From sequence record PP968062.1: a stretch of 64,000 nucleotides of DNA; one strand, written 5' to 3'. A program made the translations under genes and the position numbers. This document shows positions 12,817 to 59,600 of this stretch, one piece after another. The DNA is from Pseudomonas phage HPP-Temi. Position 1 is the first letter of the stretch, and every line of letters starts with the position of its first letter. The notes below the pieces were generated by a model. That model did no database searches and was not told the origin of the DNA. It saw only the letters and a list, made by a program, of their open reading frames with translations.

Positions 12817-13209
12817 TTACACTCCCGATTGGTAGCGCTTGTAGCGAACCCACTGCCCATTACATGGACGTTGGAATTCGAGGGTATCCATCATGTGGTA
12901 ACCGAAGTGCTCGATGATCCACAGAGCCACTTGCTTGGAACGCTTCATGCCCATTTCACAATGGACAACGATGTTCTCGCCGTTACAGGCTTTCACCCAT
13001 TCGATGAGTTCAGCATTCCGAGCATTGACCGGGTTATCGAACCCATCGATCTCGAAGACGTTCACACCGGGATCGATACCGTAGTTATCCTTACGGTTAT
13101 ACTCGATACTGATCAGGTTGGTGCCGGGATTAACTGCGCAACCAACTGCGCGCGGCACATGGATGACGCCTTTACGTTTACGAGTAACCTTTACGGATAC
13201 GATGCTCAT
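12817..13209 (-). CDS. cysteine phosphatase of the dual-specificity/PTP superfamily (HCX5R P-loop)
   Basis: VHCEMGMKRS = HC-x5-R(S) signature; 130 aa. Confidence 0.65.
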   Translation of the reverse strand: MSIVSVKVTRKRKGVIHVPRAVGCAVNPGTNLISIEYNRKDNYGIDPGVNVFEIDGFDNPVNARNAELIEWVKACNGENIVVHCEMGMKRSKQVALWIIEHFGYHMMDTLEFQRPCNGQWVRYKRYQSGV

Positions 13210-23458: not shown

Positions 23459-24063
23459 TATACCTCCAGTTTGGCGAGCGCTTCATCCAGGAACATTTTG
23501 AACACATCTCGTACAACCGGATGCGCTTTCGTCATCCGATTATAGAGATCGAGTTTCTCGTTGAGGAACACCGGAGCAAACTTCGGAGAGTCTTCAACAA
23601 TAACGTAGACGTTAGTCAGAGACTCGATCAGTTTACAGGTTTGCGTGATATCGCAGCACGACTCCAGTTGGGTGTGGTAAGTATCAATACGAACTTTGCG
23701 CGGAGCATCGAAGTTCGGTTGAGTCAAACCTTTCACAAGCCTGGTGATATAAGGAGTGAAGTGAACCAATACATCTTCAATGGTCCAACTACTATCCTCA
23801 ACAATGTCATGAAGCCACAAAGCAGCTTGCTCACCGGGTCCCAGGCCGAATACCTTGGCGATGGTAGCGGAGTTGTGTAAGTGGGTCCATACAGGCAAAC
23901 CAGAGCCTTTACGACGCTCTCCTGATCCGATCGTGTAACCTACCCCAATAGCGGCTGCCAACTCTACAGTATGGTGCCCTTTCCATAGCGGAAGCACGTT
24001 CGCTGGAAGGCGAGTATCCAAGATAGCTTTAACTTGCTGATATGCTTCTGCTACTACGTCCAT
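23458..24063 (-). CDS. HD-domain phosphohydrolase, Rel/SpoT-hydrolase-like (small alarmone hydrolase candidate)
   Basis: H..E..........HD..ED pattern: HHTVELAAAIG ... LWLHDIVEDS; 201 aa single domain. Confidence 0.55.
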   Translation of the reverse strand: MDVVAEAYQQVKAILDTRLPANVLPLWKGHHTVELAAAIGVGYTIGSGERRKGSGLPVWTHLHNSATIAKVFGLGPGEQAALWLHDIVEDSSWTIEDVLVHFTPYITRLVKGLTQPNFDAPRKVRIDTYHTQLESCCDITQTCKLIESLTNVYVIVEDSPKFAPVFLNEKLDLYNRMTKAHPVVRDVFKMFLDEALAKLEV

Positions 24064-29739: not shown

Positions 29740-29757
29740 GGGGAGCCGAAGCTCCCC
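29740..29757 (-). terminator. terminator GGGGAGC-UUCG-GCUCCCC
   Basis: perfect stem with CGAA loop, TTTATTTTTTG on minus strand. Confidence 0.7.
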
Positions 29758-29763: not shown

Positions 29764-31128
29764 TCACTCAGCCGAAGCTTGCGCTTCTTTAGCAGCGGCT
29801 TTCTCTTCCTCTTTTTCCTTCTTGAGCAAGTAGCTGTTCGATATGGATTTCCAGGAGAGTACACGTTGGTTGGACTTGAAGACCAGACCTTCGCGGTAGC
29901 CACGTTTGTTCTTGAACGCGGACGGACCTTCAGCCATTGCCAGGACATCTTTAACAGAGGTCTCAGCGGTAGGCTTCCAGGCCGGATCGAATACCGGTAC
30001 GTATTTCAGGCCGAGTTCTTTCACGATGGAACGTGCTTCAGCCGGCAGTAGTTCACGATTGCCATCTTCGTAGACGTTGAACACGAAGTAATCGTAATCG
30101 GCTACTTCTTCAAAGTTATCCTGAATGGACGGGCCAATCAGTTCACCCTGTACGGAGATGTAGCGACCAGTGGTGGCCTGGAAGTTGCGCAGACGTTCGA
30201 TGATCTGCTGTTGATTGGTAACACGTACGAAGTTGTTGTCTTCGATAGCAGTACCTTTTGTCCACAGGGGCCAGATGATACCGTTACGAAGTTTACCTTC
30301 CGGAGTAATCCAGGTCTTCTTGCGGAATACGTTACGGTTACGGATCAGGAAGTTGCCGACCCAGTAACGCAGTTGTTGCAGGAAGCCCCACTTCTCACCA
30401 CCCATACCCAGCTCGTAGTTACGCGAGCAAACGCCAGTACGAACACCTTTATCTTCTACGCAGAACACGGTCATGGAGCTACCATCGAGTTTGTAGGTAA
30501 CTTCCATGTCATCGCCGGCTTCTTTTAGGGTATTGAAAGCAACGGTTTTGTTCTGGATACGATCTTGGTCAGACTTGGTCAGCATTACAGGCCAGGGCTT
30601 CAGCGCGCCACCCAGATCACCAATCAGCTTGACAGCTAGCTTGACGATCCACGGAGCGTTACGTGCAGCGTGAGCTTTCGGTACCATCGGAGGAGCAGAC
30701 TCGTATTTCAGGATACCCAGCTTCAGAGTCAGGTTAGTATCAACCGGCTCGTCTTTGAACTCTTCCGGAATAGGAACCAACAGACCCTGGGACAGCTCTT
30801 TGCGAAGCTTGATGGTTTTCAGACGATGATAGTTCTTACCATCTACACGACGGTTATCGGAACGACGAGCTTCCAGGAAACCGAACAGTGGGATGTTGTC
30901 CAGCGGAAGCAGAGAGTCGATCTCGCAATAGATAGCACGATCGCCTTTCTTGTACTCACCGAGTTTTACGCACAGTTGCCAACCACCAACAATTGCCAGT
31001 TCCAACGCGTCTGCGTTCGGGTGCTTGACTACGTCGTCGATTTCAACGATACGTGCCAGCTTACGAGTTTCTTCTACAACGCCGAAGCCTTCGCGGATCG
31101 GTTTGAGTTCTTCCATTTCGAGAGTCAT
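29764..31128 (-). CDS. ATP-dependent RNA ligase, Rnl family with N-terminal OB-like domain (DraRnl/NgrRnl-like) and Lys/Glu-rich C-terminal tail
   Basis: nucleotidyltransferase motif I TYKLDGSS (KxDG); 454 aa. Confidence 0.7.
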   Translation of the reverse strand: MTLEMEELKPIREGFGVVEETRKLARIVEIDDVVKHPNADALELAIVGGWQLCVKLGEYKKGDRAIYCEIDSLLPLDNIPLFGFLEARRSDNRRVDGKNYHRLKTIKLRKELSQGLLVPIPEEFKDEPVDTNLTLKLGILKYESAPPMVPKAHAARNAPWIVKLAVKLIGDLGGALKPWPVMLTKSDQDRIQNKTVAFNTLKEAGDDMEVTYKLDGSSMTVFCVEDKGVRTGVCSRNYELGMGGEKWGFLQQLRYWVGNFLIRNRNVFRKKTWITPEGKLRNGIIWPLWTKGTAIEDNNFVRVTNQQQIIERLRNFQATTGRYISVQGELIGPSIQDNFEEVADYDYFVFNVYEDGNRELLPAEARSIVKELGLKYVPVFDPAWKPTAETSVKDVLAMAEGPSAFKNKRGYREGLVFKSNQRVLSWKSISNSYLLKKEKEEEKAAAKEAQASAE

Positions 31129-31207
31129 TTCAGTTTCCTTATTAACAAGGTTTATGTTTTTCTTTCTTCTGTCTACATAACTGAACGAGTCCAGTCGAAT
31201 TTTCCTA

Positions 31208-31606
31208 TTAGGTATTTACACCCCAGTTGTAGTCGTAGTAGGTTTCACAGAAGGTCTTACCTGCGGTATACTTCATGGTGCAGTTGTTGGAATCAACCAG
31301 AGTCGCTAAGTCTTCGAACGGTACAGGGTGACCACTCATCGGAGAGATGATCGTGTAACCGTTGTAGCGCAGATGATCAACCAGAGCAACCATACCAGTT
31401 TCCAAACCGACATTGTAGATGCGGTTTTCTTTCGGAGTCTCAACGATGTACTGTTCACCAGCAGGAATGTCAGTGATCAGACTACGATCGTCATCGGTAC
31501 GAGCTACATCGGCCATGGTCCGACTGATTTCCCAGCAGAACTCATTGAGTACGGGGTTGGATTCTTGCCATTCTTTCTTTTCTTGCAGACGCTGTTCGCA
31601 GGACAT
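31208..31606 (-). CDS. hypothetical protein ~133 aa, C-terminal ...WGVNT tail family
   Basis: ORF track 31208..31762 trimmed to ATG with GAGGT RBS downstream of the promoter element. Confidence 0.55.
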   Translation of the reverse strand: MSCEQRLQEKKEWQESNPVLNEFCWEISRTMADVARTDDDRSLITDIPAGEQYIVETPKENRIYNVGLETGMVALVDHLRYNGYTIISPMSGHPVPFEDLATLVDSNNCTMKYTAGKTFCETYYDYNWGVNT

Positions 31607-31635
31607 TGTAATTACCTCGTTGTGGATGCAAATAA

Positions 31636-31670
31636 GTAATATAGATCTGAAAAAAATTTTATTGACATAA
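31636..31670 (-). promoter_or_regulatory. promoter-like element family B
   Basis: minus strand reads GTCAATAAAATTTTTTTCAGATCTATATTACTT immediately after a terminator. Confidence 0.45.
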
Positions 31671-31671
31671 A

Positions 31672-31689
31672 GGGGAGCCGAAGCTCCCC
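31672..31689 (-). terminator. terminator GGGGAGC-UUCG-GCUCCCC
   Basis: perfect 7-bp stem with CGAA loop, TTTATG flank. Confidence 0.65.
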
Positions 31690-31697
31690 CATGTCTA

Positions 31698-33464
31698 TTA
31701 CAGAGATGCAGCAATCCGTTCCCGGATCTTAGCCATCGTGTCGTGTTTGTAGAACTCACCATTCTTGAAGAACAGTTTCAGTTCACCCGATTCGGTTTCC
31801 AAAGCATCCCAACTAAGGTCAGCTTCTTGTTCCAGAACGAACTTACCATCTTCGGTCTTCACTACATGCAGGAAACCTTTAGCCGACTTCTTGGAAGAAG
31901 CAGCTTTAGGATCTTTGTACAGCTCAACGAACTCGTCTTCGATCTGAACAGCAGTAGCTTTGACAGCCATGCCGAAAGTATCGCGAGTGTTGTACTGATA
32001 GGTGAAGCTACCGATACCAAGAACTACGTTGCTAGAAGCGAAGCCTTTACGTTCCAGGCGAGACATGATCTGCTCGGTACGGTCTACAGTGATCGAGTCA
32101 CCATAGATCAGGCCAACGTATTCGTTCAGGCACTTGAAGCCTTTACTGTTCTCAGTACCACCGAAGGAGTCCCACAGGACTTCAATTGCACCGCGTACTT
32201 CCACCTCAGGGATTTCAGTCTCAGAGAGGAAGTTAGACAGACTGACAGCGAGGTCGTTGATCTCGTAGTACTTACCACCTACGCTAACAACTTCGTAACC
32301 AGCGTACTCAATGGAACCGTATTCGGCAATGTGTTTCTCGAAATCAACACGATCAGCGAATTTAATCGGATAAGCCATGTAGCCAGTGATGACTTTAACC
32401 GGATCACCAGAGTCAGGACGAACAACAACTTTCGCCAGACCCAGCTCGTTCTTCAGACGACTTTCGATTTCTGCACGGATGCTCGGGAGAACATCAGAGA
32501 TAACACCCCAGAAGTCGAAGGAATCACAGACCAGCGAAATAATGCCTTCCGGGACTTTCTGAAGAATGATCTCCAGGATGTAGTCACGTTCAGCTTCCAA
32601 CCGCAGTTGGTCATGTAGTTCCGGAGTGATCACAGTACCTTCCTCTTGGAGGAAGTTGATCTTCATTTGCAGACGGTACAGGATGTTGGTTGTGGCGACA
32701 GCGTGTTCAGTTGCAGTAACTGATGCACCCAACAATTCAGTATCACTGTTAGCACCGTAATACATCTCAGCGTAATCGAGAGCCGGGATGGTATCGGTAC
32801 CAGCGAAGCTAGTCAGGTGAGCTGTACCAGAACGCATTGCATCTTCAGGACCACTCATACCACGGAAGCTGAAGTCGTGTGCCTGGAACTTGACGTGCTC
32901 ACGGTTATCGCAGGTGCGGTCAGCGTAGTGGTTCAGTACACGCTGATACTCAGCTGCAATAGTTGCGTTACAGATCATCTTCCAGTTGTAGGCACTGACG
33001 ATGGTTTCCAGGTAGTTCACCAGCCAGTAGTGATCATCGTCATCCAGGCTGTTGTAAACCACAAAGGTAGGTACGCCAACATCTACACGTTCGCCTTCGT
33101 CAATAGCCAGCACCGTCAGAGGCAGGTAGCCCAGAGCATGCAGCTTGTACAGACACTCGTGTTTGATAACGCCTTTACCGCACATGTTGTCGAAACGACG
33201 AGCAGCGCGTTTAACAGCGATTTCACGAGGCAGATTGAAGAAGGTACGATCCCACAGTTCTACCAGTTCGTGCCAGGTACCTTGCAGACCGAAGTTAACG
33301 ACTTTGTTGTCGTAGAACGCAGAACAAGACTTCGACCGCAGGAACTGCTTAGCAGAACGCGGGGTGAAGTTTGCATACTTACGTTCAGTACCTTTCGGAT
33401 ACAGAGCGCCATGGCCAGGTTTATAGCAGTCAGTAGCAGTTGCTGCATAGAGAGCATTAGACAT
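31698..33464 (-). CDS. nadV: nicotinamide phosphoribosyltransferase family enzyme (NadV/NAMPT-like; possibly a nicotinamide ADP-ribose transferase 'Namat')
   Basis: TDCYK, NFGLQ, YWLVNYLET, HDFSFRGMS, AHLTSFAGTDT, VVRPDSGDP all align with NAMPT blocks; ~60-aa insertion after RPDSGDP. Confidence 0.8.
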   Translation of the reverse strand: MSNALYAATATDCYKPGHGALYPKGTERKYANFTPRSAKQFLRSKSCSAFYDNKVVNFGLQGTWHELVELWDRTFFNLPREIAVKRAARRFDNMCGKGVIKHECLYKLHALGYLPLTVLAIDEGERVDVGVPTFVVYNSLDDDDHYWLVNYLETIVSAYNWKMICNATIAAEYQRVLNHYADRTCDNREHVKFQAHDFSFRGMSGPEDAMRSGTAHLTSFAGTDTIPALDYAEMYYGANSDTELLGASVTATEHAVATTNILYRLQMKINFLQEEGTVITPELHDQLRLEAERDYILEIILQKVPEGIISLVCDSFDFWGVISDVLPSIRAEIESRLKNELGLAKVVVRPDSGDPVKVITGYMAYPIKFADRVDFEKHIAEYGSIEYAGYEVVSVGGKYYEINDLAVSLSNFLSETEIPEVEVRGAIEVLWDSFGGTENSKGFKCLNEYVGLIYGDSITVDRTEQIMSRLERKGFASSNVVLGIGSFTYQYNTRDTFGMAVKATAVQIEDEFVELYKDPKAASSKKSAKGFLHVVKTEDGKFVLEQEADLSWDALETESGELKLFFKNGEFYKHDTMAKIRERIAASL

Positions 33465-33480
33465 ATTTTTGATCCTCGGA

Positions 33481-34368
33481 TTAGAAAACAGAATGGGAGA
33501 AGAATTTCGGGTCACGTACACCATCATGCCGATAATCATTTACAGCGTTAGGATGATAGGTGTTAGTGGTCTGGATATAATCGTAGTATTCGTTCAGTTC
33601 GTCGAAACCCTTGGAGAAAATACCATGGGTTACAAACAGACCCAGTTGATCTACGATGCACTGCTCGTGGATAACCTTAGCAAGTTCAATGAACGTGCGG
33701 CCACCATCACAGATGTCATCGATAACCATCAACTTAGCTAGTCGAGGAACTTCATGGGCATTCAACAGCGACGTGTGGGTGATCTTACCAGTCGACAGTT
33801 CACGGTTCTTACAAGCGTACAGTACGCCAGCAGCACCGATCTCTTTCGCAATGGCTTCGGTCTTTTTACGTGCACCTTCATCAGGGGCAACCAACCACCA
33901 GTCACTCGGATTTTCCAGAAGTTGCCCTTCGACACACACCCAGCTTTTGATGATATCTGCTTGGGTAATCTCGCGGCAATTGTTGATGAGTGGCAGCGAC
34001 ACATTACTGTGAGGATCGTACAGGCATACAGACGTAGCGTCCAATGCATTGATCAAACCAGTCATCACACTAATCGACAGAGGTTCACCTTCATCGCAAA
34101 CACGATCTTGTCGTGCGTACGGCAGATAACCAATAACCAAGTGTATTTCAGGACGAATACGCTGGCGACGAATAGCGTCGAATACCAGGAACAGTTCCAT
34201 GATATCGTCACTATTACGAAGCCAAGCATTGATTATGAATCGTTCGCCTTTCTTTCTGAGATCTTTCAGAGGGATCTTGATACCGATCTCACCGCCAGGG
34301 AATTTAAAGGGTTGACAATCGTAGTGATCTGCCAAGCCGTTACCGTGAAGCTGAGTAATTCGAATCAT
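33481..34368 (-). CDS. prs: ribose-phosphate pyrophosphokinase homolog (Prs-like; candidate ADPR-pyrophosphokinase 'Adps')
   Basis: YLPYARQDR and VIDDICDGGRT match Prs signatures; ribose-5-P loop (DLHA.Q.QGFF) replaced by DPHSNVSLPL and DTGGT by DGGRT. Confidence 0.75.
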   Translation of the reverse strand: MIRITQLHGNGLADHYDCQPFKFPGGEIGIKIPLKDLRKKGERFIINAWLRNSDDIMELFLVFDAIRRQRIRPEIHLVIGYLPYARQDRVCDEGEPLSISVMTGLINALDATSVCLYDPHSNVSLPLINNCREITQADIIKSWVCVEGQLLENPSDWWLVAPDEGARKKTEAIAKEIGAAGVLYACKNRELSTGKITHTSLLNAHEVPRLAKLMVIDDICDGGRTFIELAKVIHEQCIVDQLGLFVTHGIFSKGFDELNEYYDYIQTTNTYHPNAVNDYRHDGVRDPKFFSHSVF

Positions 34369-34393
34369 TTATTTTTCCTTTAGGAAAGAAGTT

Positions 34394-34409
34394 GGGGACC
34401 GAAGTCCCC
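34394..34409 (-). terminator. terminator GGGGAC-UUCG-GUCCCC
   Basis: 6-bp stem with CGAA loop, TTCTTTCCTAAAGG flank. Confidence 0.55.
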
Positions 34410-34416
34410 GTTCGGG

Positions 34417-35670
34417 TTAGCCCTTGACGCAAACAATCTGACGCAGGGTGTGGACGATCTCAATGAGGTCATCCTGAGCAGCCATTACGTCTTCAATGTT
34501 CTTATAAGCCTTTGGAGTCTCGTCGATCACGTCAATGTCTTTCCGGCATTCTACACCGGCAGTATCACGAGCATGATCTTCAAGAGTGAAAGTCTTAGCG
34601 GCTTGGGTTCGGGACATGACACGTCCTGCTCCGTGCGAACACGAACAGAAGGACTCGCGGTTCCCTTTACCTTTCACGATGAAGCTCTTAGCGCCCATCG
34701 ATCCAGGGATAATACCGTACATGCCTTCATCTGCACGCACAGCGCCTTTACGAGTTACGGATACTTTCGCACCGAAGTGGTTCTCGAACGACACGTAGTT
34801 GTGGTGACAGTTTACAGCAGTAAGGCTAGTGTTGATAGGCCGACCCATGTAGTCAGCCACAGCCTCGATTGTTGCACGCATCATGATCGTACGGTTGAGA
34901 GCAGCGTAACGCTGTGCCCAATGTACAGCCTCGATGTAGTCGCTGTAGTACTTGGTACCTTCCGGCAGATAAGCGAGGTCCTGATCAGGCAGATTGATGT
35001 GGTAAAGCCGCATCTCCTCTTTTGCTTTCTCGATAAAGTACCGACCAATTGCGTTACCGATTCCACGAGAACCCGAATGGAGCATGATCCAAACTCGATC
35101 TTGTTCATCCAGACAGATTTCTACGAAGTGGTTACCAGTACCGAGAGTACCTGCGTGGTTGAAAGCACGGTTAGCAGCCTTACCCAGTTTCGGGTGTTTA
35201 GCCACGATGAGCTTCAGTTCCTCTTCAAGCTTCTTAACCTGAGCTTGGAGCTCCGGTTCGAGTTTCTTGTAAACGAGGTTGAAGTCACTCCATGCGCCAC
35301 GATCATTCGGTCCGCCATTGTCAGTACGACCATGAGGGATCCGAGACTCAATACGGTAACGCAGATGTTGCAAGCCACGAGTCATGTCGTTAGCTGTCAG
35401 ATCAGTCAACTGTGCTGCCATTCCACAGCCAATGTCAACCCCTACCGCAGACGGAATGATTGCACCCCGCGTAGCGATTACGGAACCGATGGTTGCACCG
35501 GTACCAAGGTGGACATCAGGCATTACAGCCAGATGCTTATAAATGAACGGGAGTCCCGCAATGTTCTTCAGCTGACGTTTTGCATCAGCTTCAACAGGGA
35601 CGCCTTTAACCCAAGCTTTAATTGGGAATTCATTTTGTTCGTTCAGCATAACGTATTTTTGAGTAGTCAT
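34417..35670 (-). CDS. rtcB: RtcB-family RNA 3'-phosphate/2',3'-cyclic phosphate ligase
   Basis: NHAGTLGTGNHF, HSGSRGIGN, AVNCHHN, SHGAGR blocks typical of RtcB; 417 aa. Confidence 0.85.
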   Translation of the reverse strand: MTTQKYVMLNEQNEFPIKAWVKGVPVEADAKRQLKNIAGLPFIYKHLAVMPDVHLGTGATIGSVIATRGAIIPSAVGVDIGCGMAAQLTDLTANDMTRGLQHLRYRIESRIPHGRTDNGGPNDRGAWSDFNLVYKKLEPELQAQVKKLEEELKLIVAKHPKLGKAANRAFNHAGTLGTGNHFVEICLDEQDRVWIMLHSGSRGIGNAIGRYFIEKAKEEMRLYHINLPDQDLAYLPEGTKYYSDYIEAVHWAQRYAALNRTIMMRATIEAVADYMGRPINTSLTAVNCHHNYVSFENHFGAKVSVTRKGAVRADEGMYGIIPGSMGAKSFIVKGKGNRESFCSCSHGAGRVMSRTQAAKTFTLEDHARDTAGVECRKDIDVIDETPKAYKNIEDVMAAQDDLIEIVHTLRQIVCVKG

Positions 35671-35749
35671 TGTAGACGCTCCGAGAGTTTTAAGGTTTAG
35701 GAATTCAACGAGTTAACGTTGTGCCAAGGTCGGGATCGCAGAATTCCAT

Positions 35750-35778
35750 GGACAGGTAGAGTAATGTCATGCCTGTCC
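35750..35778 (-). other. long-loop hairpin (7-bp stem GGACAGG/CCTGTCC, 15-nt loop) in a 136-nt intergenic region, flanked by GAATTC sites
   Basis: seen directly; no U-tract. Confidence 0.3.
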
Positions 35779-35806
35779 GTATTAGATAAGACTTTTGAGT
35801 AAATTG

Positions 35807-36391
35807 TCATCGGTCCGATTCAACGGACATAGATAACTCTTTATGTTTTCTTCGCCTTTCGACATCGGCGAACCAAGGTCTTACACTGAGCCACATTGCA
35901 GGCCAACTAAGAATAGCAGCTATAGCCATCCATACTGCGCTGAGTAATACCCATGCATCGTTACCATCATCAACATCGCGTGGAGCTATGTCTAGTTGAT
36001 AACCGGTTCCAACGGGGACATGGTGATATGTGTAATCACCGAGCTTGGTTTCGTATACGAAGGGAACACCTTTCATTTTCCCTTCCCAACGACCCTTTAG
36101 CTCGGTATAAACACCGTTCTTGTACTTGTGAGATTCTTCCCATTTCCAGGTCAGTACAACCTGGGTCTTACGTTTGGTAACGTAGTCAGAGAAGAATGAG
36201 TTGTAGACTGCACCACCCATAAATGCTAAGCAGATTAGGTAGAGTACCACACAACGCAGTTTAACCCACTTGGAGATTGGTACATACGGCTCTTGTTTCA
36301 TGGTTATCGTACAGCCGGTTGCGTTTGCATAACCCAAGGGATTCCTTGTGGCCATTGCATATATTGCAGCTGCCTCCGGAGTTATATTCAT
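35807..36391 (-). CDS. membrane protein 194 aa (at least two TM)
   Basis: ORF track; ATGA overlap with upstream gene. Confidence 0.55.
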   Translation of the reverse strand: MNITPEAAAIYAMATRNPLGYANATGCTITMKQEPYVPISKWVKLRCVVLYLICLAFMGGAVYNSFFSDYVTKRKTQVVLTWKWEESHKYKNGVYTELKGRWEGKMKGVPFVYETKLGDYTYHHVPVGTGYQLDIAPRDVDDGNDAWVLLSAVWMAIAAILSWPAMWLSVRPWFADVERRRKHKELSMSVESDR

Positions 36392-37215
36392 TTAGGATTC
36401 CCATGGATAAGCTGGAACGTGTCGAACTTGTATTGATCAACGAAGTACCATGCGAGTTCACTCAGCTTAAAGATATCCGGACGTTCGTATTCACCGAAGT
36501 CGGGTTTCTCTTTAGCCAAATGGAAATCGATGAAACGGTCCAATACAGGACAACGATCGATCAAGTCTTGTTCAGTGGAACCTACCTTACAGTTGACCAG
36601 TTCCTGAATACGTTTGTACAGGGTAGGATCAGACAGAATCGGTAGGAGTTCATGGAATACCATCGGTGGATGTTCACGACTAGTCTCAACCCACAATGCT
36701 GCTAACAGTGGACGGAGAGCATAGAAGTATTTCTTCATGCGGACTTTCTCATCCGACAGCCAACGCATCTTGGTTTGCTTGGCCATGGAGATATAGTGCA
36801 TGAAGCTCGATTCGGGAATGAAGTGCTTGATAGCGTAATCACGAATCAGTTTGTAATCCCACTCGATCTTACGGTAAACGATCGGGGAGTTCAACCATTC
36901 CAACAGAGTCGGGTTAGACTTGTAAGCCAGTTGAAGTGTCTTGGTGATACTCCAACCAGCCAGATCGAGTTCCTTGGAAACCATCTCTTCGATGGTGTCA
37001 CGACCTTCGTTATCAACCCGGACATAATGGCTCGGATGGTTAACGTAGATGAAGCGAACATCGTAGTCGCTATTAGTAGAAGCGAAACCCCAACCACGAC
37101 TACCGGACTCACAGGCGTAAATGATCTTTACACCATACTTCTGTTCGATACGAGTTAACTCGGCGTCTATAACTGCACGCATCTCATCACTAACAGGGTG
37201 ACGTGGATCCATCAT
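36388..37215 (-). CDS. pol-beta superfamily nucleotidyltransferase, RlaP-like (RNA-repair-associated family)
   Basis: YACESGSRGWGFASTNSDYDVRF = GS(x9-10)D.D NTase motif; 275 aa. Confidence 0.6.
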   Translation of the reverse strand: MMDPRHPVSDEMRAVIDAELTRIEQKYGVKIIYACESGSRGWGFASTNSDYDVRFIYVNHPSHYVRVDNEGRDTIEEMVSKELDLAGWSITKTLQLAYKSNPTLLEWLNSPIVYRKIEWDYKLIRDYAIKHFIPESSFMHYISMAKQTKMRWLSDEKVRMKKYFYALRPLLAALWVETSREHPPMVFHELLPILSDPTLYKRIQELVNCKVGSTEQDLIDRCPVLDRFIDFHLAKEKPDFGEYERPDIFKLSELAWYFVDQYKFDTFQLIHGNPK

Positions 37216-37619
37216 TTACCTACCTTTTCAAGTTTGAGTTTCTCTTCATTGCCCGTGTCCAAATACATGAACATCGAATTTCCCAGTAGGTTGTAATACA
37301 TCCAACCTTCCTTAACCACTTGATCGCCATACGTCAGAGGAATGTTCAATTCGTAAATGGCGTCATAAGGGATGACTACAGGATCTTTGTCAGGCTTGTT
37401 GAGGATGAGTGCATCGTCAGTAAGCTCAAGCCATTGCTTACGACTGATGACCCCAAGACCGATACTGAATTCGCTACCTGGGTCTTTCCCATTGAAAATA
37501 CCACAACGGACAGCAGGGTCAACGCGGTCACCAGCGATACAGATTTTCAACGGTTCGGGATTCACACCCATGAGTTCAACAACCAGTTCCAGTTGACGCT
37601 TGAGTTCAATCTTGTTCAC
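37212..37619 (-). CDS. hypothetical protein 135 aa
   Basis: ORF track. Confidence 0.6.
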   Translation of the reverse strand: MNKIELKRQLELVVELMGVNPEPLKICIAGDRVDPAVRCGIFNGKDPGSEFSIGLGVISRKQWLELTDDALILNKPDKDPVVIPYDAIYELNIPLTYGDQVVKEGWMYYNLLGNSMFMYLDTGNEEKLKLEKVGK

Positions 37620-38224
37620 AGTGTAAATTCCTTCGTGTTGTATTGACGTGCAGAGTCAGTCCACCATGTAGGTGTCTGTGCGTAGTAGTACTCACCAAAG
37701 ATACAAGTGGCTAAGGTTTTATCCAAAGCTTCCTGATAAGACAGCTCGCCATCTTTAGTAGCGAAGTGAACCATGTTGTTGAAGCAGGTGATAATGTCAG
37801 CGTTTTCTTTTGTGGAGAAAACAACAGTACCCTTGGCTCCCACTTCGGAATGGATCATCGAGCTCCACGGACGAACACCGCGATCAGTGACCAGATAGAT
37901 ATCTTGTACAGCTGATACGGAAAAGAACGTACGAAGAAGGTTGCTGTAATCGGGTAGGTCTTGCTCGAACAGAATATCGAGGATCTTACAGACCTTATCG
38001 ATCTTCTTCATTTTCTCGGTGTAACGTGCACCGCCATCATTCTCAGTGCAACCGATATTGAAGATGATACTGTAAATGGATTCCACAAGCTTACAGCATT
38101 TGTAGACGTACGGAGTTCCCTTTACTTTAGGAGTCCATACGAAAAGATTGCTCTTTCCTGGATTAGGTTGCTTGAACTGATGGATGCGGTACGGAATACC
38201 TTTTTCAAACAGCAAGAAGTCCAT
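37616..38224 (-). CDS. hypothetical protein ~203 aa
   Basis: ORF track 37616..38383 trimmed (5' part translates a terminator hairpin); ATG with GGAGAA RBS. Confidence 0.55.
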   Translation of the reverse strand: MDFLLFEKGIPYRIHQFKQPNPGKSNLFVWTPKVKGTPYVYKCCKLVESIYSIIFNIGCTENDGGARYTEKMKKIDKVCKILDILFEQDLPDYSNLLRTFFSVSAVQDIYLVTDRGVRPWSSMIHSEVGAKGTVVFSTKENADIITCFNNMVHFATKDGELSYQEALDKTLATCIFGEYYYAQTPTWWTDSARQYNTKEFTL

Positions 38225-38252
38225 TATTTTCTCCAAAGGAAATAAGGAAATA

Positions 38253-38274
38253 AAGCCTCCCCGAAGGGAGGCTT
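38253..38274 (-). terminator. terminator AAGCCUCCC-UUCG-GGGAGGCUU
   Basis: 9-bp stem with CGAA loop, TTTATTTCC flank. Confidence 0.7.
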
Positions 38275-38282
38275 TTATGTTG

Positions 38283-38543
38283 CTAACGATGCCCTTCGTG
38301 AGTATCGAACTCCAGATCCAATACCACGTTGGTGAATTCCTCCAGCGTACCTTCATCGAAGATACGAGGTTCACTGTCGTCACGATGCATCATACCGACA
38401 GGAGTCTGGTCCCGAAACACCATTAACAAGTCGTGTTTTACCACGACATGGTGATCTTCCCCTACGGAAAGATCTTGGATACGCTGCCAGCGGCTGCGCA
38501 GTAAGCTGCAAGCGACCCATACGGATTTCAAACGTTCAGCCAT
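38283..38543 (-). CDS. hypothetical protein 86 aa
   Basis: ORF track. Confidence 0.55.
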   Translation of the reverse strand: MAERLKSVWVACSLLRSRWQRIQDLSVGEDHHVVVKHDLLMVFRDQTPVGMMHRDDSEPRIFDEGTLEEFTNVVLDLEFDTHEGHR

Positions 38544-38634: not shown

Positions 38635-40068
38635 TTAAACAGCAACTTTACCAGCAATGTGCGGATGGAACTGGTAATCCAGGATCTCGTAATCTTCACG
38701 AGTAATATCCAGGAACGGCTTACCTTTGGCCTCAGGCTTGAAGCGGATGGTAGGAGTAGGATAAGTATTGCGGGAACGTTGCAGTGTAACTTGTTCTTCA
38801 TGGTTACTGTAGATATGGCAATCGCCACCAGTCCAGATGAACTCTTCTGCTACCATGTTAAACTGATTCGCCAACTGATGAGTCATCAACGAATAGAACG
38901 TGATGTTGAACGGATTCCCAAGGAAGTTATCGGAAGATCTTTGATAGAGCTGACAGCTGATCCCACGGGAAGGAGCTTTATGCTCATCCAACCAAGCTAC
39001 TACAGCCTCATCAGTAGCGGCCGCATCACCACGCCAAATCCTCAGATGGGCTTTGACTTGTTCTGCGTTACCGAACGGAGGTTGACCACGAGTAGTTCCA
39101 CCACTGTGTTGGTCGTGATAAGCATCCTCTTCGAATTGGCTTTGATCCAGAGCCTGCACTCTTTCGTCTACGGTCAGCTTACGAGTCCAGAACTGAATGA
39201 AGGCATGACACGGAGGCAATGCTTGATCTTCAACCAGACGAGGATCCCAGGCGCAGATGATAAGACGACGACTATCTGGGTTATGTTTAAGTTGCCACAG
39301 AAGTTCTTGAACCTGATCCACACGGCGACGGATAACACATTCATCTTTCGTGTAGTCTTCGCCAGGTACGTCAACTACGAACTTAAAGCCGCGCTTCTCG
39401 TAATTAGCCCAGTCTACTTTAGGAATGATACGAACATCATCGATATCACGCCAGGTTTTACCATAGACCGGACCAAGATCACCGCCAACTAAACGGAAGG
39501 CAGACAACAGACCATCGCTGTCTTTAATCACGATCTTTGCATCACCGATGACAATACGATATACACGTAGAGCCATTCCATAGTAGTCGAATGCATCGGG
39601 ACCAGGACCGAAACGACTTACATCGGCCCACGTCTTCAGATTAATTAGAAGTAGTGCCGGTTTGTCCTGTTCAGGATCAATCCACTTCCAATCGATATCA
39701 CCGATCTCATTGCTGAAATGCATCTCAAACGGAATGTTCTTGAACTTCTTCTGAACAGCTGTAGTCAGCCATTCGTCGGAAACGCGTTCGAATACTTCGG
39801 TACCCGGTTTAACCCATTCGTTCCAGATGGTGACGTTCTTGCTCAGGAGATATTCTAGGCGAGTGTCACCAGACTTCATCCAGTTGAGTTCTTCTTCAAC
39901 GGAAGGCAAGTGGATCTTCTTGGTGGTTACTACCGGAAGGTTTCCGTTACGGAGATCATAACGGAACTGCCTACCGAACAGAGAGGTCGTACCAGTGCCG
40001 GTACGATCCCCTTTGAATACACCGTACTTCTGTGTATCTTCCAGTAACTGTAGGTATTGATGCATCAA
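38635..40068 (-). CDS. thyA: thymidylate synthase (ThyA)-family enzyme with three large insertions (477 aa vs ~265-290 typical); dUMP-specific (Asn retained)
   Basis: GDRTGTGT, DLGPVYGKTWR, NPDSRRLIICAWDP, PPCHAFIQF, SCQLYQRSSDNFLGNPFN, WTGGDCHIYSNH all collinear with E. coli ThyA. Confidence 0.8.
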   Translation of the reverse strand: MMHQYLQLLEDTQKYGVFKGDRTGTGTTSLFGRQFRYDLRNGNLPVVTTKKIHLPSVEEELNWMKSGDTRLEYLLSKNVTIWNEWVKPGTEVFERVSDEWLTTAVQKKFKNIPFEMHFSNEIGDIDWKWIDPEQDKPALLLINLKTWADVSRFGPGPDAFDYYGMALRVYRIVIGDAKIVIKDSDGLLSAFRLVGGDLGPVYGKTWRDIDDVRIIPKVDWANYEKRGFKFVVDVPGEDYTKDECVIRRRVDQVQELLWQLKHNPDSRRLIICAWDPRLVEDQALPPCHAFIQFWTRKLTVDERVQALDQSQFEEDAYHDQHSGGTTRGQPPFGNAEQVKAHLRIWRGDAAATDEAVVAWLDEHKAPSRGISCQLYQRSSDNFLGNPFNITFYSLMTHQLANQFNMVAEEFIWTGGDCHIYSNHEEQVTLQRSRNTYPTPTIRFKPEAKGKPFLDITREDYEILDYQFHPHIAGKVAV

Positions 40069-40403
40069 ACACCCCCGTCGTTAGAGGCTACTACCAGATC
40101 ACCCGGAAGACCCAGAGCTTTATGAGTGGCTGCTTCAACAGCTTTCAAGAGAGTCTCCATGTTGTTGGTAGGATGTCCGAGGTGAGGGTCAGTGAGGAAA
40201 CCGATCTCGAACTTTTGGGGTACCTGATCGATAGCTCCGAAATCTACATCGGGACTATTAACCGGATAACCGAGATGGATACCTTTGATCACTTTACGGT
40301 CATGACCGATAGCAATGAAATCCATAGTGGCGCGGTTATGGACTACTGCCCAGGCACCAGTGGATTGCAGTAGGTTACGAGTTACGATTTCAGAAATTGC
40401 CAT
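40065..40403 (-). CDS. hypothetical protein 112 aa
   Basis: ORF track; ATGA overlap. Confidence 0.55.
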   Translation of the reverse strand: MAISEIVTRNLLQSTGAWAVVHNRATMDFIAIGHDRKVIKGIHLGYPVNSPDVDFGAIDQVPQKFEIGFLTDPHLGHPTNNMETLLKAVEAATHKALGLPGDLVVASNDGGV

Positions 40404-40788
40404 CTTCTACCACCTTCATGAACTTTGCGGTTACTTGGAGAACGATACCAGATTCGGCTCGGTCAGTGTCGCCATCGGATACGTAATGGATCTTACCGGC
40501 GTCTACCCAAACACGGGCGCCGTTAAGAGGGAAACCATCGGTAGCCATGTAATGGACTTCAGTGAAATCACCAACACTGTTCTCAGTGCGGGCTACACCC
40601 ATCAGGTGATCAACACCCATACTGGGAAGACCCATACCAGCGTTGTCGAAAGCCTTCACTTCAGTGAGACCCGTGATGTAATAACCACGACCGAGTGCAA
40701 CGGACATCTCGTAGTTATTAAAGGGAGTCAGGATATACCTGACTTCGTTGTCTTGAGGAAGCTTGATTGCATTACCCATTTTAAGCAC
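40390..40788 (-). CDS. hypothetical protein 132 aa
   Basis: ORF track. Confidence 0.55.
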   Translation of the reverse strand: MLKMGNAIKLPQDNEVRYILTPFNNYEMSVALGRGYYITGLTEVKAFDNAGMGLPSMGVDHLMGVARTENSVGDFTEVHYMATDGFPLNGARVWVDAGKIHYVSDGDTDRAESGIVLQVTAKFMKVVEDGNF

Positions 40789-41086
40789 CTTTGAATTTTA
40801 CAGCTTGGCCACTGAAAATGAATTCGTAGTTATCGGCATGCTTCCGTTCAGTCAGAAGCCGCGCCGAGTTACTGAATTCATCGTATTTAACAACAGCGAT
40901 GATCATGTTGTTACGTTTGTCGTAATACTGGATGGTGTTGTCATCGGTCTCGATGGAACCGAGATCAATAACTTCCTCACCATGTTTGATGGAAGTCAAT
41001 GCACGACGAACAGGAGTAACGCCGAAGTCGACTTTGTATTTAGCCAACGCATCGTCTGCGGTGCTTTCAACTACGTAACTAATCAT
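40781..41086 (-). CDS. hypothetical protein 101 aa
   Basis: ORF track. Confidence 0.55.
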   Translation of the reverse strand: MISYVVESTADDALAKYKVDFGVTPVRRALTSIKHGEEVIDLGSIETDDNTIQYYDKRNNMIIAVVKYDEFSNSARLLTERKHADNYEFIFSGQAVKFKGA

Positions 41087-41349
41087 TTCTTTACCTCAGG
41101 GTCGTAGGACTTGGGAATACCAGCTGCCTCGTAGAAGTGATCCCAATAGGGACTTTCATCGCGACGATGCATATTGAAATTCTGGTAATCCGTACAGATG
41201 ACATTAAAGCCATTAGCTGTAACCTCAATCACCGGCATGTTACCAGTGTGAGTATTGTCGATGATGAAGTTGATGTTGTTGTTTTGCTTATACTTCAGAT
41301 CGAATTCCCGCTTACGTTCAGCAGGACTGTAACTAACCAAGGAAGCCAT
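41083..41349 (-). CDS. hypothetical protein 88 aa
   Basis: ORF track. Confidence 0.55.
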   Translation of the reverse strand: MASLVSYSPAERKREFDLKYKQNNNINFIIDNTHTGNMPVIEVTANGFNVICTDYQNFNMHRRDESPYWDHFYEAAGIPKSYDPEVKK

Positions 41350-41351
41350 GT

Positions 41352-42101
41352 TTATTCCTCAAGACGGAGTTTCCAGAACCCGCCTTCCTCTTTCCACGTT
41401 TCACGAATAGCGTTGTCAGTACGTTGGCCGTCCTTAAACAGCTTCTCTACATTGGACGGGTGAGTATAGTTGTACAACGCAATTGCGAATTGAGCTACGG
41501 CTACACGAGCTGGAATAACACCAGTACCCGTACCCATCAGACAGCCGAGTACACGGAAGGAGTTTTTCTTACCGTACCATTCACAGCCAGCAATGCCGTC
41601 CAGGGCTGCCTTAGAGGCCAGATAAGGAACATCTGAACCTTTGGGTAACCTACGAGGAACACGCATTGTAGGAGTGTACAAGAGCGTTGCAGTGATGCCA
41701 TTAAGCTTAGTGAACTGTACGCATGCACAAACACCTACGTTTAGTTCACCGTTGTGGAAACGATTGATATCGTGTACCACGTTCTTCTGCATGTTTACAA
41801 AACGAGCAGCCAGTGCTCCGTCATAACCACCGGTCATATGCCCGTACGAGTTACCCGCAGTCATGTAGTAGTCGAAGTCATCCGCGATGTCTTCAAGATC
41901 ATCAAGGGAACCATGGAATACTTTTAGATCATGTCCAAGGTCCTTGACGAAATCGGAAATGGCGATGAGCTCTTGGAACTCTTCATAGCTGGGGGTGCAA
42001 AATACGAACTCCAATGGTTTTCGTCCGACATCCGACAAACTAAGAGTAATGCCGTCGGCAATCTCTTTGTGGATACGGGACATTACGAGTGGAGATGTCA
42101 T
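41352..42101 (-). CDS. macro-domain protein (ADP-ribose / Appr-1''-p binding or hydrolase)
   Basis: YMTAGNSYGHMTGGYDGALA resembles macro signature N-A-A-N-x-x-L-x-G-G-G-V-D-G-A-I. Confidence 0.55.
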   Translation of the reverse strand: MTSPLVMSRIHKEIADGITLSLSDVGRKPLEFVFCTPSYEEFQELIAISDFVKDLGHDLKVFHGSLDDLEDIADDFDYYMTAGNSYGHMTGGYDGALAARFVNMQKNVVHDINRFHNGELNVGVCACVQFTKLNGITATLLYTPTMRVPRRLPKGSDVPYLASKAALDGIAGCEWYGKKNSFRVLGCLMGTGTGVIPARVAVAQFAIALYNYTHPSNVEKLFKDGQRTDNAIRETWKEEGGFWKLRLEE

Positions 42102-42132
42102 TTTTATACCTCACGACAAAAAGAAAATAGAT

Positions 42133-42152
42133 GGAGCTCCCGAAGGAGCCCC
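42133..42152 (-). terminator. weaker stem-loop with CGAA loop followed by U-rich tract
   Basis: GCTCC-CGAA-GGAGC core; ATCTATTTTCTTTTTG on minus strand. Confidence 0.5.
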
Positions 42153-42185
42153 GGTGCGCTGACCTTTACGATCAACTACATAATA

Positions 42186-42434
42186 TTACAGTGAAACACA
42201 CGACATTTCGCGACGAATGTTTTTACTACTGAACTTGTATTCTAGGACTACGCCAGATTGGGTGCGAGTAACTTTAACCTCGGTTCCGTTTGCCGCAGCC
42301 GTATCTTGGATAGCACCTACTGCTTTCCAGCAGGAATCGATGCTTTCCATTTTGGTAGCGGTTTCAGAAGCGCCTCCAGCGTAGACACCGGAGACGATAG
42401 TGCTGCTGAGTAGAAGTGCACCTGCAAGACTCAT
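42186..42434 (-). CDS. small secreted protein 82 aa
   Basis: signal peptide MSLAGALLLSSTIVSGVYA. Confidence 0.55.
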   Translation of the reverse strand: MSLAGALLLSSTIVSGVYAGGASETATKMESIDSCWKAVGAIQDTAAANGTEVKVTRTQSGVVLEYKFSSKNIRREMSCVSL

Positions 42435-43231
42435 TATTTCTTACCTCCTTTAATTACGGTGAGCTTCGGCTTACCTTTATAACGAGATGGGCCAACATTG
42501 ATCGGCGTACCCGGAAGATCGCCAAAGTCGAGAAGGGGTTTATCAACAACCTTCAACTCGGGAGCCTTCTTAGTCGGACTAACTTCCACGCCAGGTTGGT
42601 TAGCAATGAAATCTTCAGCTTCTTCCAGCTCTTTTAGTTTCCGAGTATTTGAACGTTCGGAAACATAAGACAAGAACTGCGAGAACATATCGTCGTCATT
42701 GCTAACCATGTGCTGTACATGTTCGAGCGCTTTCTCTACAGGAACGTCAGTAATTCCCTTCTCTGCCAACCAAGCCATTACATCAACGATATCGATACTT
42801 ACAGTGCCAGGGGCACCATTGGCAATATCACGGAAGGGATGGACATACGTCGGATTCTCCGCATCAAACAGAATCCGATCGACATTAGGGAACGGAGAGA
42901 ATACGCTTGCATTCTCAGAGATCTGTACATTAACACCAATGAAAGAATGCCACGGTAGATGCAGACGGGTAGGCATACCCGAGAAAGCAATCTCACCATA
43001 GAAGCAATCGCCCGAATAATCAATGTGACGGCAAGCATTTACCGACAGATTGAGAACGATGGTACCATTAGTGGCGTTGAAATCTTTCGAACGCATCATG
43101 ATTTTACGGAGCGGTTCAGCCAGATAGCCAACATCGATAACACAATCGAAACGATACATGTTGTTATCGGCGTTCCAGCTGTAATACGCTTCGATCAGTT
43201 TTTGGTTCAGAGCGGAAGTAAGCTTGAGCAT
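42434..43231 (-). CDS. hypothetical protein 265 aa with Lys-rich C-terminus
   Basis: ORF track. Confidence 0.6.
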   Translation of the reverse strand: MLKLTSALNQKLIEAYYSWNADNNMYRFDCVIDVGYLAEPLRKIMMRSKDFNATNGTIVLNLSVNACRHIDYSGDCFYGEIAFSGMPTRLHLPWHSFIGVNVQISENASVFSPFPNVDRILFDAENPTYVHPFRDIANGAPGTVSIDIVDVMAWLAEKGITDVPVEKALEHVQHMVSNDDDMFSQFLSYVSERSNTRKLKELEEAEDFIANQPGVEVSPTKKAPELKVVDKPLLDFGDLPGTPINVGPSRYKGKPKLTVIKGGKK

Positions 43232-43245
43232 TTTGAGTCTCCAGA

Positions 43246-43680: not shown

Positions 43681-43687
43681 AGCAACC

Positions 43688-44221: not shown

Positions 44222-44255
44222 TGTATTTTCCTCGTTGGTGTTGGTATGGCTTCAA

Positions 44256-44294
44256 ACACATGATGTAGATCTGAGATATTTTTTAGCGTATGCT
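44256..44294 (-). promoter_or_regulatory. promoter-like element family B
   Basis: minus strand reads GCTAAAAAATATCTCAGATCTACATCATGTG after a terminator. Confidence 0.45.
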
Positions 44295-44315
44295 AAAAAA
44301 GAAAGACGACATAAA

Positions 44316-47033: not shown

Positions 47034-47034
47034 G

Positions 47035-59183: not shown

Positions 59184-59600
59184 TTAAGCAGTTTTGGGGA
59201 TACGACCGATGCTGATGCTACGGAGCATGCCATAAACACGTCCATTAGCCAGATCCATTTTACCATTACAGAAACGATCGGTCTTGACTTCCCAACCGAT
59301 ACCTTGAAGGAACTTAGCAACAGCTGCACTACGAGAAATGCCTGCTTCACAATGAACGATTAGAGTTTCACCATCGGGAACCTTATCAATGAAGGTAAGG
59401 ATCTTATCGGCATGAACGTAATCGAACATCTGATAGCGATTGTCCACGTAGTCTTCGACATCATCAAAGATCAACACGAGGATGTCTTTATGTTCACGAA
59501 CGAACTTCACCTCTTGTCCAGGACAACGGATAGAGATGATGTAGCTTTCTTCGGTTAGAGCCTGAGCAGCTAAACGAGAATAGAACTTAACCTTCTTCAT
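59184..59600 (-). CDS. cysteine phosphatase, dual-specificity-phosphatase-like (HCX5R)
   Basis: LIVHCEAGISRSAAV signature; ORF track 59184..59681 trimmed to MKKVKF start (ATGA overlap). Confidence 0.6.
   Translation of the reverse strand: MKKVKFYSRLAAQALTEESYIISIRCPGQEVKFVREHKDILVLIFDDVEDYVDNRYQMFDYVHADKILTFIDKVPDGETLIVHCEAGISRSAAVAKFLQGIGWEVKTDRFCNGKMDLANGRVYGMLRSISIGRIPKTA

Follow-up and report, generated by a model that had tools for sequence, protein, structure and literature searches.

The phage nucleus shields the DNA of nucleus-forming jumbo phages, while their RNA and metabolites stay exposed in the cytoplasm. Here we describe a region of Pseudomonas phage HPP-Temi (sequence record PP968062.1; positions 29,764 to 37,215 of an analysed stretch of 64,000 nucleotides, called the window below) that carries, all on the minus strand, the genes of three RNA-repair-type enzymes, namely the RNA ligase RtcB, the RNA 3'-end nucleotidyltransferase RlaP and an ATP-dependent RNA ligase of the Rnl5 family, together with the two genes of the NAD+-rebuilding system NARP1. 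We consider it probable that the region is an accessory counter-defence stretch, holding a cytoplasm-facing RNA-repair toolkit against host RNases in three separately terminated modules.

Several related systems have been described. In phage T4, the ligase Rnl1 and the healing enzyme Pnkp repair tRNA-Lys cleaved by PrrC, which is the conceptual model for a phage RNA ligase that undoes host RNA cleavage. That RtcB, ATP-dependent ligases and RlaP occur together in jumbo phages is already known from the survey of Iyer et al. 2021 (PMC7824862): RtcB and ATP-dependent ligases (mainly of the Rnl1 and Rnl2 families) were found there in any combination (e.g. in BcepSauron and BcepSaruman), healing enzymes generally accompanied the ATP-dependent ligases, and RlaP, with a distribution that mirrors that of the ligases, was predicted to restore excised nucleotides before ligation. 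RlaP adds one or two nucleoside monophosphates to an RNA 3'-OH and prefers a mimic of broken tRNA (PMC12776372); in bacteria like Pseudomonas it is found in RtcR-regulated RtcB-RlaP-RtcA operons. The Rnl5 enzymes, with DraRnl of Deinococcus radiodurans and NgrRnl of Naegleria gruberi as described members, use ATP and Mn2+ to seal 3'-OH/5'-P nicks in a duplex context, the 3'-OH strand being RNA (PMC4408790, PMC7261155, PMC5397189). NARP1, which experiments have shown to counteract NAD+-depleting defences, rebuilds NAD+ from ADP-ribose (ADPR) and nicotinamide (Osterman et al. 2024); according to a 2026 preprint it is extended against the aRES defence by Adpp, a phosphatase of the Poa1p/Ymx7-type macro family.

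The three RNA-repair enzymes

A first-pass annotation, made from the DNA letters alone, had reported three RNA-repair-type enzymes in the region. All three were confirmed on the minus strand by strong hidden Markov model (HMM) matches, with their catalytic residues intact:

29764..31128, minus strand: Rnl5-family ATP-dependent RNA ligase, 454 amino acids (aa), recognised by Pfam, by solved structures in the PDB and by TIGR02306
34417..35670, minus strand: RtcB 3'-phosphate/2',3'-cyclic-phosphate RNA ligase, 417 aa, intein-free (PF01139, 3.4e-130)
36388..37215, minus strand: RlaP, Pol-beta-type RNA 3'-end nucleotidyltransferase, 275 aa (PF10127, 3.8e-88)

The RtcB match to PF01139 scored 435.5 bits (cut-off 27) and covered positions 1-426 of the 426 in the profile. 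Residues D79, C82, N180, H181, H198, H290 and H346 align with D95, C98, N202, H203, H234, H329 and H404 of the P. horikoshii enzyme, which means that the metal and GMP ligands are all conserved, including the GMP-accepting H346, and that none of the His/Cys metal ligands is lost. The protein is 59-65% identical to bacterial RtcBs and 64-70% identical to RtcBs of other jumbo phages. As a member of this family it would use GTP and Mn2+ to join RNA 2',3'-cyclic-phosphate or 3'-phosphate ends directly to 5'-OH ends. Ends of this kind result from cleavage by metal-independent anticodon nucleases, HEPN RNases and toxins.

RlaP matched PF10127 over positions 1-246 of 249 with 295.8 bits (cut-off 23) and is 84% identical to gp237 of phage phiKZ. 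In an alignment with 11 bacterial RtcB-linked RlaPs, G38-S39, D50, D52 and D84 were invariant; the catalytic Asp triad of RlaP was described in PMC12776372.

The ligase encoded at 29764-31128 consists of an N-terminal OB domain (PF21189, the PHA02142 OB domain; 1.7e-24, aa 24-120) followed by an adenylyltransferase domain (PF09414, RNA_ligase; 2.1e-18, aa 291-423), and its motif I reads K213-L-D-G, in agreement with the KxDG motif and OB-like domain of the first reading. That reading had also taken it for a classical ligase like Rnl1 of T4, which did not stand. The closest solved structure is that of NgrRnl (5cot, 3.3e-46, alignment over aa 21-437), and TIGR02306, the equivalog model of DraRnl, was matched from end to end (2e-42, model positions 2-341 of 341), and because of these two results we assign the protein, on homology, to the Rnl5 family (the DraRnl/NgrRnl nick-sealing type). 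No match to the Rnl1 family was found in Pfam, PHROG or NCBIfam; only Rnl5-type models and structures matched. The TIGR02306 score of 145.3 bits is narrowly under the equivalog cut-off of 151.15, a shortfall that coincides with a clade-specific insertion of ~55 aa between motifs Ia and III (aa 243-319). NgrRnl is without this insertion, which is common to the jumbo-phage homologs of PA1C, D6 and RP12; the HPP-Temi and PA1C ligases in addition carry a C-terminal tail rich in Lys, Glu and Ala. Residues R22, D71, R190, K213, D215, E329, E413 and K427 correspond to R4, D53, R149, K170, D172, E227, E312 and K326 of NgrRnl, which bind ATP or metal or are essential.

The source phage and selection on the region

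At the DNA level the 7.5-kb region matched Pseudomonas aeruginosa jumbo phages of ~300 kb (PA1C, phiHQ, HHBS36_1, PS119XW, BRkr and phiLBG22), with 87-95% nucleotide identity to these relatives across positions 31323-37215. The relatives form the Pawinskivirus group (PMC11591403). PA1C encodes ChmA and is thus nucleus-forming (PMC10643120), and the annotation of HHBS36_1 lists a nuclear shell protein (chimallin) and PhuZ; HPP-Temi is a Pawinskivirus-like, nucleus-forming jumbo phage. PA1C and HHBS36_1 both carry this block, and its products are annotated there in the same way. The earlier statement that such a combination of enzymes is not characterised therefore holds for experiments, but the combination is annotated in sister phages and was catalogued in PMC7824862. 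In the literature searched we found no published functional study of the Pawinskivirus-group block.

Between HPP-Temi and PA1C, the ratio of non-synonymous to synonymous substitution rates (dN/dS) was 0.04-0.13 for all genes of the block (0.063 for RtcB, 0.044 for the ligase), which indicates that they are maintained by selection.

NARP1 and a macro-domain protein

A further finding concerns the NAD module that the first-pass annotation had noticed within the block. It lies between the two ligases and is, by the matches of its two proteins, NARP1, consisting of Adps and Namat. A macro-domain protein is encoded further along the window:

33481..34368, minus strand: Adps, Prs-like ADPR pyrophosphokinase, first NARP1 enzyme (Pribosyltran_N, 7e-11; phrog_619)
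31698..33464, minus strand: Namat, NAMPT-like nicotinamide ADP-ribose transferase, second NARP1 enzyme (Pfam NAPRTase, 7e-36)
41352..42101, minus strand: macro-domain protein of the Poa1p/Ymx7 (ADPR-1''-phosphatase) type, 249 aa, identified by profile, AlphaFold2 (AF2) model and Foldseek

The best solved relatives of Namat are the phage Namat structures 9W5X/9W5W (4.5e-101; PMC12774641), as compared to ~1e-46 for human NAMPT. Every Prs model scored under its curated cut-off on Adps, as expected for an Adps, and the gene order, Prs-like before Nampt-like, agrees with the description of NARP1.

The macro-domain protein itself gave no match in a Pfam search; its homologs carry PF14519 and PF01661 (Macro_2 and Macro). 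A profile of its family matched the yeast ADPR-1''-phosphatase Ymx7 (1njr) nearly over the full length (1.4e-8), and the AF2 model (mean confidence score, pLDDT, of 85) has a macro fold, for which Foldseek returned 1njr as the top match (7e-8) followed by many macro domains. The macro domain of the first reading is thus real, but the protein is explained better as a partner of NARP1 than by the role in RNA end healing proposed for it: as its family is that of Adpp, which extends NARP1, a role in NAD+ metabolism is better supported by the profile and the model, and we regard the protein as a candidate Adpp-like partner of NARP1.

Transcription units and the history of the ligase unit

The first-pass annotation had treated the region as a single cluster. 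We found GC-rich hairpins with a TTCG loop and T-runs in four intergenic gaps of the minus strand, and these part RlaP-RtcB, NARP1 and the ligase, in disagreement with a single operon. The signals and the remaining genes of the units are:

38252..38275, minus strand: strong terminator-like hairpin with a 10 bp stem and a TTCG loop, at the end of an 86-aa open reading frame (ORF, 38283-38543) and just upstream of p202
37616..38224, minus strand: p202, 202 aa, first gene of the putative RlaP-RtcB unit
37212..37619, minus strand: gp236-like protein, 135 aa (phrog_30953), 68% identical to phiKZ gp236 and translationally coupled to RlaP
35807..36391, minus strand: TM194, 194 aa with two hydrophobic segments, overlapping the RlaP stop by 4 bp
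34394..34409, minus strand: hairpin GGGGAC-TTCG-GTCCCC with a weak T-run, between the RtcB stop and the Adps start
31673..31690, minus strand: terminator-like hairpin after the Namat stop codon
31636..31643, minus strand: TATATTAC, phiKZ-type early-promoter motif, located past the NARP1 terminator and ahead of p132 and the ligase
31208..31606, minus strand: p132, 132 aa, preceding the ligase within one putative unit, 70% identical to its PA1C counterpart
29740..29757, minus strand: terminator-like hairpin GGGGAGC-TTCG-GCTCCCC with a T-run, immediately behind the ligase stop codon

The hairpins likely define three putative transcription units, of which the first holds p202, gp236-like, RlaP and TM194 (joined by 4-bp overlaps) and, after a gap of 136 nt, RtcB; the second holds Adps and Namat, and the third p132 and the Rnl5 ligase behind the early-promoter motif. 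Of the three RNA enzymes only RlaP and RtcB would then share a unit, with RlaP 717 nt upstream. The hairpin at 34394..34409 may act as a partial terminator, with possible read-through from RtcB into NARP1. The motif TATATTAC is listed as a promoter motif of phiKZ (PMC7058600) and occurs eight times in the window (1.27 expected), always on the minus, coding strand (positions 9383, 14109, 14160, 21741, 23111, 31636, 52134 and 60439), suggesting that a number of early transcription units are spread over the window. The ORFs that had been listed at 37616-38383 (255 aa), 31208-31762 (184 aa) and 31698-33539 are over-called.

Only 4-5 relatives of the gp236-like protein turned up in two very large protein searches (billions of proteins), and its AF2 model (pLDDT 53) is below use for a fold search; the conservation of the gene pair, described below, suggests that it may be a partner of RlaP. 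TM194, whose gene separates RlaP from RtcB and is confined to the Pawinskivirus group, gave no match in family searches (Pfam, PHROG, NCBIfam), and when compared to phiKZ gp238 as a possible counterpart it showed no similarity. Similarly, p132 was without a match in Pfam and PHROG searches.

The p132/Rnl5 unit (29764-31606) stands apart from its surroundings. Its nucleotide identity to PA1C is 81% for the ligase and 68% for p132, with synonymous divergences (dS) of 1.3 and 2.3, whereas the flanking genes are 93-98.5% identical with a dS of 0.05-0.4. The DNA-level match to the relatives begins at ~31323, within p132, which points to a recombination breakpoint at about this position. Because the ligase has a dS of 1.3 as compared to 0.05-0.4 for its neighbours, the sequence comparison indicates modular exchange of the ligase unit and a separate recombinational history.

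Distribution and synteny

RtcB was found in 703 phage-collection records, Rnl5-like ligases in 337 and RlaP in 83. For Pseudomonas, fewer than 17 records contained RtcB, as compared to at least 48 phiKZ-like records with RlaP, and from these organism counts alone we infer that RtcB is absent from phiKZ-like phages. A search of IMG/VR with a single RlaP query returned one phiKZ-like locus only. The phiKZ locus reads ThyA-gp236-RlaP (gp237), and RtcB, NARP1 and the ligase are absent at this locus; the gp236-RlaP pair is conserved (68% and 84% identity; gp236 at 8597-9004 of the phiKZ stretch L003), and upstream of gp236 a 38-aa remnant of p202 is retained (L003 8484-8597). Transposon insertions in phiKZ gp237-242, which include the RlaP ortholog, are tolerated and these genes are dispensable (PMC12676376), which fits an accessory role. 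From these comparisons it looks as if RlaP and gp236 are ancestral in the lineage and TM194, RtcB, NARP1, p132 and Rnl5 were added in the Pawinskivirus group.

Clustering of the other genes was found in more distant jumbo phages. In Ralstonia phage RP12 the order is RtcB-Adps-Namat-x-ligase, as in HPP-Temi, with RlaP absent, and in the IMG/VR jumbo contigs L088, L091, L092 and L099 RtcB is clustered with NARP1 and/or Rnl5. More generally, RtcB, Adps-Namat, ThyA and Rnl5 lie within ~10 kb of each other, in variable order, in divergent jumbo-phage contigs of ~300 kb (L085, which is RP12, L088, L091, L092, L099 and L173-L182); outside the Pawinskivirus group, RlaP was in no case within 10 kb of RtcB. 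Psa21/D6-like contigs have the order Adps-Namat-ThyA-..-Rnl5, with RtcB ~40 kb away on the same contig. The linkage of the ligases to NARP1 raises the possibility of a functional coupling, which we did not adopt, given that the synteny extends to ThyA and other neighbours and that the gene order is variable, so that shared ancestry is simpler; as far as gene order goes, the pattern fits inherited synteny with rearrangement and does not require such a coupling.

In bacteria, RlaP lies immediately downstream of RtcB in 11 of the 65 loci with full flanks, which bears out the link between the two that the first-pass annotation had drawn. The RlaPs next to bacterial RtcBs are 37-50% identical to the phage protein (47-50% for the Pseudomonas copies), and Rnl5 was found near none of 80 bacterial RtcB loci. 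A recent capture of a host RtcB-RlaP operon was rejected, since none of the bacterial RtcBs found exceeds 65% identity to the phage protein, the gene order is reversed and RlaP predates RtcB at the locus in the phiKZ lineage.

Healing enzymes and neighbouring genes

A Pfam sweep of 113 ORFs of the window revealed no PNK, HAD, 2H, calcineurin-like (Metallophos) or KptA domain, and none of these types of healing enzyme is listed in the PHROG-based annotation of the 420 coding sequences of the sister phage HHBS36_1. The T4 Rnl1/Pnkp model was rejected, since the ligase belongs to Rnl5 and a healing enzyme was found neither in the window nor in the HHBS36_1 annotation; the analogy to T4 drawn in the first-pass annotation is therefore weak. 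That annotation had also named two CX5R cysteine phosphatases as possible end-healing enzymes:

12817..13209, minus strand: 130-aa HCX5R(S) protein, motif VHCEMGMKRS (DSPc, 8.9e-5, 22.7 bits)
59184..59600, minus strand: 138-aa HCX5R(S) protein, motif VHCEAGISRS (DSPc, 9e-6, 26 bits)

The HCX5R(S) signature is present in both, but both score below the DSPc cut-off of 33.5 bits, and any link to the cluster is putative. A 201-aa protein (23458-24063, minus strand) gave a near-threshold match to HD_4, the RelA/SpoT-type HD domain (26.3 bits, threshold 27.2), and corresponds by position and annotation to the metal-dependent phosphohydrolases of phiKZ (gp246) and HHBS36_1.

No tRNA genes were found in the window, and an Rfam scan of it returned no family and no introns. 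HHBS36_1 has seven tRNA genes (Leu-UAA, Pro-UGG, Met-CAU, Tyr-GUA, Leu-UAG, Thr-UGU and Asp-GUC; 10396-18578 of its stretch L167), which lie ~50 kb from the repair genes and may be substitutes for host tRNAs targeted by anticodon nucleases.

The minus strand at 38635-55861 is a neighbourhood of nucleotide and DNA metabolism, with for instance a long thymidylate synthase ThyA (477 aa, with a split Pfam match), an NAD+-dependent DNA ligase (LigA, 48946-50994) and Pfam matches to dCTP deaminase-like, DprA-like and QueC-like proteins. The LigA gene accounts for a weak PF09414 match (2e-4) that had been a candidate for a second RNA ligase in the window, and the presence of an NAD+-dependent DNA ligase beside NARP1 underlines the dependence of the phage on NAD+.

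Possible functions of the region

In the counter-defence toolkit that we favour, the first module (p202, gp236-like, RlaP, TM194 and RtcB) would act through RtcB on 2',3'-cyclic-phosphate/5'-OH breaks, the second (NARP1) would rebuild NAD+ from ADPR and nicotinamide by Adps and Namat, and the third (p132 and Rnl5) would seal 3'-OH/5'-P nicks, while RlaP would restore excised nucleotides, a proposed counter to nucleotide-excising nucleases. The RNAs mended in vivo might be tRNA, rRNA or mRNA. Because the two ligases would take both opposite break chemistries as they are produced, a Pnkp-type healing step would not strictly be needed, which fits the lack of a recognisable healing enzyme. The RtcB homolog of the chimallivirus RAY is cytoplasmic, consistent with a toolkit that faces the cytoplasm. 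We count the general counter-defence reading of the first-pass annotation as supported, the role itself being inferred; overall, its observation was confirmed and its interpretation partly supported.

Several points weigh against such a toolkit. In the literature searched there are no experiments on these phage proteins, nor on phage RtcB, Rnl5 or RlaP as counter-defence, and RNA repair systems are rarer in the phiKZ-like group (PMC7824862). The 3'-OH product of RlaP is unusable by its operon partner RtcB (PMC12776372), and since 3'-phosphate ends are no substrate for RlaP either, a 3'-phosphatase step is missing. The Rnl5 enzymes seal nicks, and any activity of theirs on broken anticodon loops would be hypothetical. 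Co-ordination of the three enzymes is unsupported because the ligase is transcriptionally separate and diverged, and RlaP need not depend on a phage ligase since at this locus phiKZ-like phages have gp236-RlaP but no RtcB. Finally, the recurrent proximity of RtcB, NARP1, ThyA and Rnl5 in related jumbo phages, in variable order, is explicable by inherited synteny. It is quite possible, although we hold it tentatively, that the three enzymes do not form one pathway, and that they came together through common descent and the accretion of genes in an accessory region that varies among phiKZ-related jumbo phages, each of them (or at most the RlaP-RtcB pair) acting independently. The three terminator-bounded units, the dS of the ligase unit as compared to its neighbours, the phiKZ locus with its RlaP and no RtcB, NARP1 or ligase, the RP12 cluster without RlaP, the distant RtcB of the Psa21/D6-like contigs and the lack of Rnl5 near bacterial RtcB all agree with this. 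On the other hand, the pairing of RlaP with RtcB in bacteria is far above chance and both share a unit in HPP-Temi, the product of RlaP suits a 5'-P ligase such as Rnl5 (PMC12776372), and RtcB and Rnl5 lie at most 10 kb apart in several divergent jumbo lineages (L085, L088, L091 and L099).

A role of the enzymes in RNA metabolism of the phage itself (maturation of tRNAs or transcripts, quality control, or repair after phage-encoded ribonucleases) seems unlikely. RtcB is the tRNA-splicing ligase in archaea and eukaryotes, sister genomes have the seven tRNA genes as well as annotated ribonucleases, and the physiological roles of Rnl5 are uncharted (PMC5397189); yet the window has neither tRNA genes nor introns or RNAs detectable with Rfam, the phiKZ RlaP ortholog is dispensable, the genes adjoin NARP1, a proven counter-defence system, and they occur in related phages in the patchy manner that is typical for accessory genes of anti-defence. 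Still less probable, in our view, is that the ligases act on DNA or on RNA-DNA junctions in replication or repair, complementing the LigA of the window, with Rnl5 sealing RNA-3'-OH/DNA-5'-P nicks in hybrids and RtcB joining 3'-phosphate DNA ends. NgrRnl and DraRnl do seal nicks between a 3'-OH RNA strand and a 5'-P DNA strand, loss of DraRnl makes Deinococcus sensitive to radiation, and the neighbourhood is rich in genes of DNA metabolism (ThyA, dCTP deaminase, LigA and DprA), but the cytoplasmic RtcB homolog of RAY is outside the phage nucleus that holds the DNA, RlaP is inactive on DNA, and RtcB-RlaP operons are contexts of RNA repair. A more ambitious form of the counter-defence toolkit, which we consider rather doubtful, is a dedicated island against RNA cleavage and NAD+ depletion, in which a complete Pnkp-free RNA repair system is combined with NARP1 and the Adpp-like macro protein. 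RlaP would there rebuild nucleotides excised by RloC-type nucleases and pass the 3'-OH end to Rnl5, not to RtcB, perhaps aided by the gp236-like protein, and one of the orphan HCX5R mini-phosphatases would perhaps be the missing RNA 3'-phosphatase. If true, the island would target two kinds of defence that the phage nucleus cannot block.

Each of the enzymes is an ordinary member of a known family, and the anti-defence gene set is solid but largely expected. What is new is modest: the placement of the ligase in Rnl5, the division into three units of which one holds both RlaP and RtcB, a ligase unit with a mosaic history, a window in which healing enzymes are not recognisable, and the context of NARP1 with an Adpp-like protein. 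As RNA and metabolites are exposed in the cytoplasm, genes for RNA repair and NAD+ rebuilding are plausible host-range determinants of therapeutic Pseudomonas phages, and the close sequenced relatives together with the non-essential phiKZ orthologs make this region a workable system and a well-defined test case.

Comparison with known systems

Unlike T4, HPP-Temi has neither an Rnl1-type ligase nor a detectable Pnkp, and sealing would be independent of healing (RtcB) or limited to pre-formed 3'-OH/5'-P nicks (Rnl5). Compared to the jumbo phages of the 2021 survey, the combination of RtcB with an ATP-dependent ligase is shared, whereas the ligase is of the Rnl5 family in place of Rnl1 or Rnl2 and the healing enzymes that generally go with such ligases are not detectable in the window. 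With the bacterial RtcB-RlaP-RtcA operons the region has in common that RtcB and RlaP share one putative unit and that the catalytic Asp triad of RlaP is kept; in HPP-Temi, however, RlaP precedes RtcB instead of following it, the unit also contains, interleaved, the genes of a membrane protein and of two phage-only proteins, and the RtcA cyclase and RtcR are absent. Like DraRnl and NgrRnl, the ligase consists of OB and adenylyltransferase domains without a C-terminal module and keeps the mapped active-site residues, but it is ~110 aa longer, which includes the insertion and the C-terminal tail.

The block of the Pawinskivirus group (phiHQ, PS119XW, BRkr and phiLBG22 included) has the gene order and the annotated products of HPP-Temi (RNA ligase, NAMPT, Prs, RtcB and nucleotidyltransferase), and at the protein level HPP-Temi and PA1C are 97.6% identical for RtcB, 98.5% for RlaP, 99% for Namat and Adps and 91% for the ligase; the ligase/p132 unit of HPP-Temi is a diverged allele that was missed by megablast. 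Compared to NARP1 with Adpp (NARP1-AP), the macro gene of HPP-Temi lies ~8 kb from NARP1, outside the operon, and its ADPR-1''-phosphatase activity is putative; in line with NARP1 and NARP1-AP, HPP-Temi has Adps followed by Namat and, in the same phage, a Poa1p/Ymx7-like macro protein.

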